A stretch of 64,000 bases of DNA from an uncultured Caldithrix sp. (lineage in GTDB: Bacteria; Electryoneota; AABM5-125-24; Hatepunaeales; Hatepunaeaceae), in NCBI GenBank assembly GCA_964355675.1, contig CAYHEC010000006.1:1-64000 (forward strand), in the 5' to 3' direction. The position numbers and the translations under genes are program-made. This document shows, piece after piece, positions 9,565 to 13,317 of the stretch (the first letter of the stretch is position 1; each line of letters opens with the position of its first letter). The notes beneath the pieces are model-generated. The model was not told the DNA's origin and did no database searches. It was given only the letters and a program-made list of their open reading frames with translations.

Positions 9565-11865
9565 ATGTCTGAGTACTTAGGCAAACTTTTGGTCGATAAG
9601 ACCGAAATAACCAAAACCTTGACCAACCGAAAGAAGAAGCATATCGAGAAGTCCGTCTCAGTCACTACGAAAATGAACAAGGCTGAAACGATGGAGCTAC
9701 TTAAACAGAAAGCAGTGCTTGAAGAAGCCGATGGCTGGGCAATTCTGACAACGAATATGAAATCATTAAGATTAAAAAAGGACAAGCCTAAGGACGAACA
9801 GCTCGAAGATGAGTTATGGGTTATCATGGCTCAGATGGGCTTTAATGAGCTAAGTGATGGGCGATCTTTTACAATCCGAGAGTATCACAGCCTGAGCCCA
9901 AGGCAAATCGACGTTTTTGGGAAAGATGGAGAGACAGCTATATTAATTGAGTGCACTCACTGTAGAGTTCCCCAAAAGAAAGACATGAGCGAGTTGATAA
10001 ATAAGATCGAGAAAATGAAGGGCAATATAGGAAATTCCATTCGAACCCATTATGGAATAGAGTCTCACCTAAAGGTGGGATGGGTAATTGCAACGAAAAA
10101 TATAGAATGGGGAATCGCAGATCTCGAAAAAGCCAAAACATGTAAAATAACAGTATTACGCGAAGAAGAGATAGAATACTACCACAAATTGATTGGCCTA
10201 TTGCGAGAGGCAGCAAAGTATCAATTTCTATCACATGTATTTTCACAAGAGGAAATTAGCGGCTTGGAATTGCCGGTTGCTGCCACTCGTGGGACTATGG
10301 GAGGAAAACCGTTTTACAATTTTTTAATAAGACCTTATCAGCTCTTAAGAATCGCTTATGTGAGCCATAAGGGGAGTCATAATTCGGAGGATATTGAATC
10401 TTATCAAAGAATGCTCAGTCAAAACAGATTAAAAGCAATTGCCGCTTTTATCGACGAAGGAGGGCAATTTCCAACGAATATAGTAATTAACTTAAGAGGC
10501 AAAATTAGATTCGAAAGAGGTATCCCGATTGGTGATTCTTTTGTCGGTACGTTGTACCTACCTCAGATATACGCGTCTTGTTTGATCATAGATGGACAAC
10601 ATAGATTATATGGCTACATGCATAGTCGGAGGGCAAAGGAAGAAAACGATAAGACCACCGTATCTGTGTTGGCATATGACAATATCTCCCCAATGGATGA
10701 AGCCAATTACTTTATAGATATCAACTCTAAGCAAGTCAAGGTTACCGGAAACTTAATTGCTGAATTATACGCAAATTTGCGATGGGATTCTCCGAGGTTT
10801 GACGACAGACTGATATCCCTTTGCACTCGCACCGTCATGGCAATGAATTCAAAATACAGCTCTCCAATATGCGATAGACTTGCCACTACAAATAAGACGA
10901 AATCAAGTATCAGATGTCTTACACTGAAATCGTTTAATGACGGACTGAAGGAGAATCTATTATTTGGCGTAGAGAATAAGCCCGGACCATTATCTGATTC
11001 AAATTCGAAGGATTTATCTAAGACGTTGTCAAAAGGTGTCGAATTGTTAAGTGCGTATCTAAATCTATTCGCAACAGAATTGCCAGATCACTGGAATTTA
11101 GGTAATGACAAAGGCGGATTTCTTGCCACAAATGAGGGAATTCGGTCCTTACTTAAAGTACTGAAAGGCATTCTCTGGTATATAGAATTCAAAGATCATG
11201 TGGTTGTTGACTGCGAACCGCCTGATATAATACTTCCATATGTCAAGATTTATGTTTGGCCAGTTGTCACATTCTTCAAGAATGCTTCTATTCATGAGAT
11301 TCAAAACTATAGAGACACTTCGGGCTCTTTGAAGAATGTGACAAAAAACGCCAATCGAATGATGCAATTGATAAACAGGGAATATAAGGACTTTACCCCT
11401 TCAGGTCTGAAGGATTTCCTTGAAAATATGGACCAAGAGGGTACCCACGAAGCTCATCATTTAATAGATGACTTAGAGAGAAGATTCTATGCTTATGTAA
11501 TTGCTGTATTAAAATCGAATTATGGCGATCTGTATGAGCAGTGGTGGATGGAGGGAATACCCCTTAAAATTAGAAAAGATTGCAATGACCGATATGAGGA
11601 TGAAAAGGGGGTAAAGGCAAGAGAACAATATCTTTCGCTTGGGAATTTCAGGTCAATAGTGACTGATAAATGGGAATTATTTAATAACGAGTTTGATATT
11701 GGCGAAAAAGGTGGGAAGGATAAAAAAACAGATTGGATGTATCGGTTGAACGAAATTCGTAATATCACGCATCATTCAACAAAATGGCCAGCAACTAAAG
11801 ATCAAGTGAATTTTGTTAGGGAAATTCACTCGAAGTTGGAAGGCAGATTCATTGTTCCAAAATAA
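9565..11865 (+). CDS. DGQHR-domain (DndB/DpdB-like ParB fold) protein with a C-terminal Swt1-like HEPN domain and an N-terminal restriction-endonuclease-like region
   Basis: FPTNIVINL...LIIDGQHRLYGY (DGQHR at nt 10591-10605)...FIDINSKQ. C-terminal DLERRF..YGDLYEQWWMEGIPLKIR..YLSLGNFRSIV..KWELF..RLNEIRNITHH carries the Rx4H HEPN motif (nt 11758-11775). N-terminal QIDVFGKD...AILIECTH is PD-(D/E)xK-like but lacks the Lys. Confidence 0.75.
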   Translation: MSEYLGKLLVDKTEITKTLTNRKKKHIEKSVSVTTKMNKAETMELLKQKAVLEEADGWAILTTNMKSLRLKKDKPKDEQLEDELWVIMAQMGFNELSDGRSFTIREYHSLSPRQIDVFGKDGETAILIECTHCRVPQKKDMSELINKIEKMKGNIGNSIRTHYGIESHLKVGWVIATKNIEWGIADLEKAKTCKITVLREEEIEYYHKLIGLLREAAKYQFLSHVFSQEEISGLELPVAATRGTMGGKPFYNFLIRPYQLLRIAYVSHKGSHNSEDIESYQRMLSQNRLKAIAAFIDEGGQFPTNIVINLRGKIRFERGIPIGDSFVGTLYLPQIYASCLIIDGQHRLYGYMHSRRAKEENDKTTVSVLAYDNISPMDEANYFIDINSKQVKVTGNLIAELYANLRWDSPRFDDRLISLCTRTVMAMNSKYSSPICDRLATTNKTKSSIRCLTLKSFNDGLKENLLFGVENKPGPLSDSNSKDLSKTLSKGVELLSAYLNLFATELPDHWNLGNDKGGFLATNEGIRSLLKVLKGILWYIEFKDHVVVDCEPPDIILPYVKIYVWPVVTFFKNASIHEIQNYRDTSGSLKNVTKNANRMMQLINREYKDFTPSGLKDFLENMDQEGTHEAHHLIDDLERRFYAYVIAVLKSNYGDLYEQWWMEGIPLKIRKDCNDRYEDEKGVKAREQYLSLGNFRSIVTDKWELFNNEFDIGEKGGKDKKTDWMYRLNEIRNITHHSTKWPATKDQVNFVREIHSKLEGRFIVPK

Positions 11866-11877
11866 TAGGCGTCTTTA

Positions 11878-13317
11878 ATGGCAAATATCCTACTTATCGA
11901 ACCCGACTATCGTTCCAAATTTCCACCTCTCGGTCTACTAAAACTCAGCACATACCACAAAGACAAAGGTGATGAAGTCAAGTTCTGGAGGGGTCACAGC
12001 GAAGAATATCGAACTCAGAAGTGGGATCGCGTTTATATTGCTACATTATTCACTTGGGAGTTGCCTCGTGCGATTAAGACGATCAAGTATTATTCCGGAT
12101 CAGTCGTTAATCCTGAACGAGACATATTTGTAGGTGGTGTTGCCGCAACATTATACCCACAGTATATCAAAGATAATGCTGTATGCAACCTTATCGAAGG
12201 AACTCTCGATAAGCCTGATAGACTTGAACCTGGCGCTCCAGCAATCGCTGAACTTGTACCGGATTATGACCTCCTGAAACAGGTTGACTATCCCTATTTC
12301 CCGAATGACGCCTATTTTGTCAGAATTACAAAAGGCTGCATCCGATCATGCAAATTTTGTGCTGTCCCAAGGCTGGAAACTGAATATGGCTATCTAAATT
12401 CCGTAGGCAACCAAGTTGTAAGCGTGAAAGCACTTTATGGTGAGCGTAAAAATCTCGTGGTAATGGACAATAACATTCTCGGCATTGAGGATATTGATTA
12501 TCACATCAATGGCATTGCAGAGATTGGTTTTGAACGTGGCGCAACTTTTAAGGGGAAGCGTCGGTATGTAGATTTCAATCAAGGGTTAGATGCTCGGATT
12601 ATTGCCGAGAAACCAGAACTTGCCAAATTACTCGCGAAGATCTGCCTGTCGCCAGTTCGATTGGCATTCGATTTTAATAGCCGTCTCATGGGACGGGCTT
12701 ATAAAGAGGCCATCCATCTTTTAGCTGCGGAAGGTTTCAGGGAATTTACGAATTATCTTTTATTCAACTTCAATGATGCGCCCGAAGATTTATATAGTCG
12801 TCTAATGGTGAATTATGAGCTGAATGACAAATTAAAATTACAAATTACAGGATTCCCGATGCGGTTCATTCCGATGGATGATGTGAAAAGAAATCACATA
12901 TCACAGTTCTGGAAATGGCGTTTTTTACGTAGTATGCAGTGCGTGTTATTGGCTACGAGGGGCTTGGTAAGTCCAAATCCGAGTTTTCTATTCCGGTCGT
13001 TTGGTCAAACCTATGATGAGTTTCTTGAGATATTATCGATGCCTGATAGGTACATAATCTTCAGAAAAGATTATGAAGATAATGATGCAAGTGAGTGGCG
13101 CGATAGTTTTCGCAAGTTGTCTCCTACAGACAGAAATGAATTTTTGGATCTGTTAGGAGTTCTAAATCGTGACCGCGGTCGAGCCAAGACAATCCCAACA
13201 ATTCGAAGAGATTTTCAAAAGCTATTGTTGCATTATTACCCAGATGGTAAAAATGCTCCTCAGACTCCAAGACGAGATATTTTGGTACGACAAGGAGTAT
13301 CTGTTGGATATGATTGA
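11878..13317 (+). CDS. Radical SAM enzyme with a B12-binding-like N-terminal domain
   Basis: N-terminal [32 protein letters not shown] (Rossmann/B12-binding-like). CX3CX2C motif in [15 protein letters not shown] (Cys codons at 12337, 12349, 12358). The start lies 12 nt after the upstream stop. Confidence 0.8.
   Translation: [479 protein letters not shown]

Follow-up and report, generated by a model that had tools for sequence, protein, structure and literature searches.

What does a protein that joins a restriction-endonuclease-like domain, a DGQHR domain and a HEPN domain do when its gene is followed, 12 nucleotides (nt) further on, by the gene of a radical S-adenosylmethionine (SAM) enzyme? 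The question is raised by two plus-strand open reading frames (ORFs), ORF1 of 766 amino acids (aa) and ORF2 of 479 aa, in the first 64,000 nt of contig CAYHEC010000006.1 from an uncultured Caldithrix sp.; this whole stretch is called the window in the following (coordinates in Table 1). A preliminary description of the locus had proposed a candidate modification or defence module. We consider it somewhat better than even, with a probability of roughly 0.55, that the pair is a restriction-modification-like defence module of two genes, in which the radical-SAM enzyme (rSAM) would mark the cell's own DNA and ORF1 would serve as restriction or abortive effector. The evidence comprises the domain identities and intact catalytic motifs of both proteins, the linkage of their genes, the mutual exclusion of rSAM and methylases beside ORF1-like genes and the modular reuse of rSAM in other cassettes.

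Domains and conserved residues of the two proteins

The central part of ORF1 is a DGQHR domain: TIGR03187 matches aa 240–536 with 165 bits against a cutoff of 58.85, which makes the protein a member of the DGQHR family, and the motifs FPTNIV, IIDGQHRLYGY and FIDINSKQ are found in the sequence. The C-terminal part models as an all-alpha HEPN domain and, by its conserved Rx4-6H motif and its profile match, falls into the Swt1/Abi2 clade; among HEPN proteins, AbiF (8.4), AF0298 (8.0) and the C-terminal domain of yeast Swt1 (6.8) were matched, and Pfam HEPN_Swt1 matches 17 of 27 ORF1 homologues. In the alignment of these 27 homologues, R732 and H737 at the C-terminus and FPTN and DGQHR in the centre are invariant, as are E81, D82, D116, D121, E129 and K147 in the N-terminal part. 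Both domain assignments agree with the preliminary description. ORF1 also matches ParB-N nucleases (7.3).

The N-terminal part had been described as nuclease-like but lacking the canonical lysine. This holds for the canonical position itself, which is occupied by T131, but not for the lysine as such, which has probably been relocated to K147 in an active site that is still functional, judging from the covariation of the two positions: across 70 ORF1 family members compared, T131 is accompanied by K147 in 19 of 19 cases. Most of the rSAM-linked clade that holds the window copy has the nuclease lysine at 147 instead of 131, and canonical D...ExK is found in 35 of 38 methylase-linked ORF1 relatives (see below).

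The full-length architecture of ORF1 is kept in more than 120 protein clusters. A PADLOC-DB v2 scan of ORF1 returned weak DpdB, DndB and PDC-M34B matches and nothing more, no discussion of PDC-M34 was found in the searchable literature, and a sequence search of the PDB with the ORF1 family profile gave one marginal, irrelevant match. Since ORF1 and ORF2 each have hundreds of full-length homologues, the two reading frames are not chance products.

ORF2 combines an intact CX3CX2C [4Fe-4S] motif (C154, C158 and C161) with a partial TIM barrel, which places it in the radical-SAM superfamily, as had been proposed. Its family shows 55–63% identity across phyla, with CX3CX2C and motifs such as DNN, VDFNQGxDAR and GFPMR being invariant. 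The N-terminal fold is B12-binding-like, in line with the preliminary description, yet the Pfam B12-binding score is 14.7 against a cutoff of 32.1; AprD4 and RimO match this fold equally well and use no cobalamin. The helical, basic C-terminal domain might serve in substrate recognition. ORF2 stays below every family cutoff of NCBIfam, Pfam and PADLOC and has no PADLOC match at all, and its relatives carry the NCBI labels "hypothetical", "cobalamin-binding domain-containing" or "radical SAM protein". The family is discrete, because a profile search of 1.84 billion representatives yielded just 2,282 matches with E ≤ 1e-3 and 360 (50%-identity clusters) with E ≤ 1e-30; it is present in at least 478 of 185,579 species genomes.

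The closest structural relatives of ORF2 include RimO and MgmA, which act on proteins, MiaB, which acts on tRNA, and TsrM and AprD4, which act on small molecules; a sequence search of the PDB with the ORF2 family profile gave a marginal RimO match (E 0.011) alone. A MiaB/RimO-type methylthiotransferase was rejected because the Cys triad of a second cluster and a TRAM domain are missing and the C-terminus is helical: ORF2 has cysteines at 103, 154, 158, 161, 256 and 355 and no others, hence no conserved N-terminal triad, and TIGR00089 scores 16.6 against a cutoff of 251. Viperin-like chemistry is disfavoured for ORF2. The rSAM proteins encoded beside the closest metagenomic ORF1 relatives (L088, 4750–6357; L089, 8360–10030) have an insertion of ~90 aa at profile position 224.

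Gene linkage and the methylase alternative

The pairing of the two genes was examined in loci obtained by a metagenome scan with the ORF1 alignment. Here, as in the scans described below, the loci analysed are the 80 best matches of each scan, and counts are not phylogenetically independent. Among ORF1 relatives of at least 40% identity with sufficient flanking DNA, about 15 of 17 have an rSAM gene in the locus, and in most of these relatives it is adjoined by the gene of a GHKL ATPase of ~500 aa (HATPase_c_3; a related copy is MORC-like). On plasmids of cultured bacteria (N. aromaticivorans pNL1, Agrobacterium sp. S7/73 and Rhizobium sp. AB2/73), all five records with a full-length ORF1 homologue have rSAM within ~3.5 kb. 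The gene order on pNL1 is DGQHR, rSAM and GHKL, followed on the opposite strand by a 769-aa ORF1 homologue of 40% identity over its full length; in Agrobacterium sp. S7/73 it is ORF1 homologue, DGQHR, rSAM and GHKL. The conserved pairing on which the preliminary description had made its proposal depend is thus found in other genomes. The rSAM cassettes of pNL1, pR132505 and the Agrobacterium plasmid (L248, L249 and L252) are adjoined by genes of a PIN-like (~640 aa) and an ATP-binding protein (~530 aa), whose orientation differs among the three. In L100, a TniQ/TnsD-type gene (799–2574) lies immediately upstream of the ORF1 homologue and hints at carriage of this homologue on Tn7-like transposons.

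The pair had been regarded as self-contained, which is true of the window, but most relatives also carry the GHKL gene: it adjoins rSAM in 13 of the 21 rSAM-linked ORF1 loci and in every plasmid example, whereas a cluster hidden Markov model (HMM) found no GHKL gene of this rSAM-associated family in the 64 kb. The GHKL protein encoded at 22011–24320 was considered as a hidden partner and rejected, because it is a member of another family and its gene is linked to a C5 methylase gene. The window copy might be a decaying or incomplete remnant, with the GHKL and the extra DGQHR gene absent, or the pair might serve only its own maintenance as an addiction module, without any part in phage defence. 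We regard this as highly unlikely: neither ORF is truncated, all invariant catalytic residues are retained, forms with two genes and no GHKL are found again in four unrelated contigs (L088, L097, L149 and L069), and identical copies of the pair were assembled from three independent samples.

More distant ORF1 relatives (~30% identity) retain the three domains with their motifs and, in place of rSAM, have an adjacent gene for a D12-class N6-adenine DNA methyltransferase. The 71 full-length ORF1-like genes comprise 39 accompanied by a methylase and no rSAM, 21 by rSAM and no methylase and none by both, while for 11 neither was recognised in a first pass. All 39 methylase genes are co-directional with the ORF1-like gene, which 25 of them overlap. 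The 11 loci with neither include two with divergent D12 methylases (L129 and L148), one with a MORC-like GHKL gene and one with an SNF2/ParB cassette that runs off the contig; of the other seven, four or more end within a few hundred bases of the ORF1-like gene. In a neighbour-joining tree, which carries no support values, four or more rSAM-linked clades are embedded among methylase-linked ones, and the switch from methylase to rSAM appears to have occurred several times. Such a pattern is the classical mark left where one modification enzyme has displaced another, non-orthologous one.

The preliminary description had allowed for either a modification or a small molecule as the product of rSAM. 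Because Dam-like methyltransferases and rSAM are mutually exclusive beside ORF1-like genes, the modification is favoured and the small molecule less so. In the latter case, rSAM would make a small molecule or modified nucleotide, either an antiviral chain terminator as viperins and Ophion OpnA do or a signal, and ORF1 would be a sensor or effector, activated or spared by this product. Antiviral nucleotide chemistry is known for radical-SAM enzymes (bioRxiv 10.1101/2025.09.30.679545), the ORF1 nuclease domain resembles those of the cyclic-oligoadenylate-activated effectors Card1, Can2 and Cdn1, and solitary phage homologues could act on nucleotides too. However, ORF1 has no ligand-sensor domain, and given this together with the alternation with methylases we judge a small-molecule product unlikely.

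The radical-SAM family in other cassettes and in phages

To describe the wider use of the family, one genome per species was scanned, and genes were called and neighbours clustered in the 80 best rSAM loci. The enzyme is the terminal gene of several different cassettes, often with a GHKL (MORC-type) ATPase alongside. Its partners are an unknown protein, a HerA-like protein and GHKL; a small protein and an SNF2 helicase (ZorD/DpdE-like) between two ParB-like proteins; PbeA, which is an HKD-helicase (PMC10853773), PbeC (a CxC ABC ATPase) and, at the place of the DndE cognate, a 148-aa protein; GHKL and a ~290-aa protein; a DISARM-like set of DrmA, DrmB and a helicase, after which come a long rSAM and GHKL; a stand-alone DGQHR protein and a metallo-beta-lactamase-fold protein; or a BglII-like restriction endonuclease. 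In the DISARM-like cassettes of Firmicutes, the rSAM proteins have 670–810 aa and an uncharacterised C-terminal extension.

Just two D12 (Dam-like) and two C5 methyltransferases were found in these ~80 loci. The known counterparts of the DISARM-like, Pbe/DndE-like, SNF2/ParB, stand-alone DGQHR and BglII-like cassettes depend on an enzyme of modification. According to Rakesh, Aravind and Krishnan (PMC10853773), the CxC-ABC/DndE core recruits phosphorothioation or cytosine methylases, and in the present cassettes rSAM stands in their place. The enzyme is what these loci have in common, and the window pair is one variant within a larger modular set. The neighbours of the family are conflict-system genes throughout, which, together with the scores below all cutoffs, keeps the enzyme outside the housekeeping families, membership in which had been named as one possible refutation of the proposal.

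As the cassette partners are mutually unrelated, DNA would be the only common possible substrate of rSAM. The same observation bears on the idea that rSAM targets a protein or is a regulator, either modifying or activating its partner in the manner of glycyl-radical activases, RimO and MgmA, or neutralising ORF1 like an antitoxin. RimO and MgmA, its top structural neighbours, do modify proteins, and the 12-nt spacing of the two genes suggests co-expression and possibly a complex. Yet no common protein substrate is apparent across GHKL, SNF2, DndE cognate, DrmA/B, DGQHR and BglII-like endonuclease cassettes, and the phage copies are solitary, which makes a protein substrate or a regulatory role quite improbable.

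In viral contigs, at least 539 stretches match rSAM. The 80 viral loci analysed (L168–L247) yielded 76 called homologues, of which 49 are short (≤335 aa, roughly 290–330 aa). All 49 keep CX3CX2C; they end around HMM position 310 without the C-terminal helical domain, and no neighbouring gene is constant among them. In Clostridium phage phiCT453B (L250, 6965–7840; gp19), rSAM lies in the replication and recombination module between a RusA resolvase gene and late genes. This module is the usual seat of orphan methylases in phages, and the position fits an orphan DNA-modifying enzyme, although this is only suggestive.

In the defence module favoured here, ORF2 would use SAM and its [4Fe-4S] cluster to mark the cell's own DNA and would thereby do the job that a DNA methyltransferase performs in the sister systems; the mark might arise from cobalamin-dependent C-methylation or from another radical reaction. 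The DGQHR domain of ORF1 would bind or scan DNA, probably in dependence on nucleoside triphosphates, its putative PD-(D/E)xK nuclease would cut DNA without the mark, and the Swt1-type HEPN RNase would provide a second, back-up effector of abortive infection. DpdB is an ATPase that DpdA requires for the insertion of preQ0 into DNA, and by analogy the DGQHR domain may also help rSAM to reach DNA. A wider reading, which we hold tentatively and at somewhat less than even odds, is that the family installs a radical-chemistry DNA modification of a previously unknown kind, by which a range of restriction-type systems would recognise self DNA (DGQHR-nuclease, DISARM-like, Pbe/DndE-like, SNF2/ParB and BglII-like), with the short phage homologues as the matching counter-defence.

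Several points weigh against a DNA-marking role in a two-gene module. The support is genomic context throughout, and the closest structural relatives of ORF2 include no DNA-acting enzyme. The best matches of each scan are no random sample, their genes were called by a simple longest-ORF script, the screen of rSAM loci for methyltransferases covered two families only, and the displacement tree is without support values. In L079, a D12-class (Dam-like) methyltransferase gene (9056–9976) precedes an rSAM homologue at a distance of 9 nt; no other adjacent case was seen, and this one means that the two enzymes are not always alternatives. Finally, with GHKL present in most relatives and missing from the window, the two-gene form could be incomplete.

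Genomic surroundings and comparison with known systems

The two genes lie in an AT-rich block, as had been described: the guanine-plus-cytosine (GC) content is 0.38–0.42 across 10–13 kb, compared with ~0.48 for the window and 0.62 in the gene immediately upstream. The block is part of a defence island and is located between an MmeI-type enzyme and a gene for a helix-turn-helix (HTH) and M78-peptidase protein; the neighbours also include a type IX secretion system (T9SS) glycosidase-like gene, whose T9SS sorting domain points towards the Bacteroidota/FCB group, and a NuoM gene. The repeat-packed spacer of ~500 bp noted upstream measures 503 bp and contains three tandem arrays. A CRISPR-like nature was ruled out, since the arrays are head-to-tail without spacers and the 29-bp unit has no second occurrence within the window. 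The promoter of the pair is presumably located in this spacer, in which a promoter scan found no strong plus-strand site.

The lone NuoM-type gene begins 210 nt past the rSAM gene, with no nuo gene among the flanking genes examined. It was rejected as a third component of the module because it does not recur in related loci and is itself a strong NuoM match. The HTH-M78 gene and the DUF4160/DUF2442 pair that follows it look like more mobile or defence-type cargo. Genes of a C5 methylase, a GHKL protein and two proteins of ~220 aa form a cluster in a second AT-rich block (GC 0.39); the cluster has no PADLOC entry and parallels the rSAM and GHKL pairs of other genomes.

Table 1. Features of the window at and around the ORF1–ORF2 locus.
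Feature	Position (nt)	Strand	Details
ORF1, REase-like/DGQHR/HEPN fusion, predicted restriction-abortive effector	9565–11865	+	766 aa
Putative PD-(D/E)xK restriction-endonuclease (REase)-fold domain	9790–10239	+	ORF1 ~aa 76–225
DGQHR (ParB/DndB/DpdB-like) domain	10282–11172	+	ORF1 aa 240–536; DGQHR motif nt 10591–10605
Swt1/Abi2-type HEPN domain	11407–11844	+	ORF1 ~aa 615–760; Rx4H motif R732–H737, nt 11758–11775
ORF2, radical-SAM enzyme, predicted DNA-modifying (self-marking) component	11878–13317	+	479 aa; 12 nt after ORF1
N-terminal Rossmann/B12-binding-like domain	11878–12252	+	ORF2 ~aa 1–125
Radical-SAM partial TIM-barrel core	12295–12882	+	ORF2 ~aa 140–335; CX3CX2C C154/C158/C161, nt 12337–12360
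C-terminal helical basic domain	12910–13272	+	ORF2 ~aa 345–465; model secondary structure; isoelectric point 9.6 for aa 340–479
Upstream spacer with three tandem repeat arrays	9062–9564	+	503 bp; repeat scan
Tandem array 1	9122–9228		29 bp x3.7
Tandem array 2	9255–9279		9 bp x2.8
Tandem array 3	9295–9363		31 bp x2.2
MmeI-family type IIG restriction-modification enzyme, complete	4834–7581	+	five of five MmeI Pfam domains; PADLOC REase_MTase_IIG 1174 bits
NuoM-type antiporter-like subunit	13528–15015	+	TIGR01972, 635 bits
HTH and M78-peptidase gene	15690–16799	minus	PD-Lambda-2_B-like and RmrA-like
DUF4160/DUF2442 small-gene pair	within 15690–17777	minus	after HTH-M78 gene
Second AT-rich block, C5 methylase and GHKL cluster	20675–25584	minus	GC 0.39
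C5 cytosine DNA methyltransferase	24283–25584	minus	
Double-GHKL protein	22011–24320	minus	769 aa; N-terminal HATPase_c_3, C-terminal HATPase_c
SPFH/Band-7 genes, three, flanking the island	2070–4094, 18562–19398, 19395–20381		two adjacent

That the pair corresponds to no named system was borne out: the gene combinations of PADLOC-DB v2, including DISARM, Pbe, Dnd, Dpd and viperin, are not matched. DISARM, Pbe and Dnd/Dpd have a logic of modification plus helicase or nuclease in common, but their proteins are absent from the window; in the DISARM-, Pbe- and DGQHR-type rSAM cassettes, the usual methylase, phosphorothioation and deazaguanine genes are missing and rSAM, with or without GHKL, is found instead. 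Known modification-based immunity relies on SAM methyltransferases, phosphorothioation (Dnd/Ssp) and 7-deazaguanine insertion (Dpd). If the reading proposed here is true, rSAM in the slot of the methylase extends bacterial epigenetic self-marking by a new chemistry, the lack of a methylase in several orphan DISARM-like and Pbe-like cassettes is explained, and hundreds of phage "radical SAM domain proteins" gain a testable role. With N. aromaticivorans DSM 12444 (pNL1, SARO_RS17525), R. leguminosarum WSM1325 (pR132505) and Agrobacterium sp. S7/73, cultured hosts are available in which the reading is directly testable.

The enzyme itself is remote from characterised two-domain radical-SAM enzymes: the cobalamin-dependent methylases TsrM, MgmA, TokK and CysS, the methylthiotransferases RimO/MiaB, and AprD4 have 11–17% identity to ORF2, which reaches none of the family cutoffs, and they belong to tRNA, ribosome and antibiotic pathways, whereas ORF2 is found in the context of DNA-conflict systems. 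With viperins and Ophion OpnA it shares the presence of a radical-SAM enzyme in defence islands, but the Ophion enzyme is viperin-like and unrelated to ORF2. Searches of the open-access PMC and bioRxiv literature found no description of the rSAM family or of its modular use; subscription journals could hold one.

ORF1 has closer counterparts. The nearest are the type II-like restriction-modification pairs of an ORF1-type nuclease and a D12 methyltransferase, which form its sister branches and agree with it in all three domains and in having the modification gene adjacent and co-directional; in the window, the methyltransferase is replaced by rSAM. DndB and DpdB share the ParB-superfamily DGQHR domain and the genomic tie to a (here predicted) DNA-modifying enzyme, and DndB has been reported with a C-terminal HEPN domain (PMC3632139). 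Unlike both, ORF1 has a putative N-terminal PD-(D/E)xK nuclease and a radical-SAM partner. Membership in either family was rejected (DndB, TIGR03233, 25.5 against 328; DpdB, NF041060, 54.8 against 300), and neither dndACDE nor dpdA or dpdC lies nearby, in keeping with the absence of the usual partners noted before. ParB fused to Swt1-like HEPN has already been catalogued (Saro_3948; PMC3710099), DGQHR fused to PD-(D/E)xK and HEPN has been described (PMC3632139), and for DGQHR-nuclease fusions that accompany DNA-modification systems a role as suicide or restriction effectors was predicted (Makarova and colleagues, PMC3632139), a logic with which the mechanism favoured here agrees. The domain combination of ORF1 is that of these ParB-HEPN and COG1479/DGQHR-nuclease fusions in restriction-modification contexts, while the term "Radical SAM" is absent from the text of both papers. 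The architecture of ORF1 is thus already known, and the main interest of the locus lies in its radical-SAM partner and in the reuse of this partner across cassettes.

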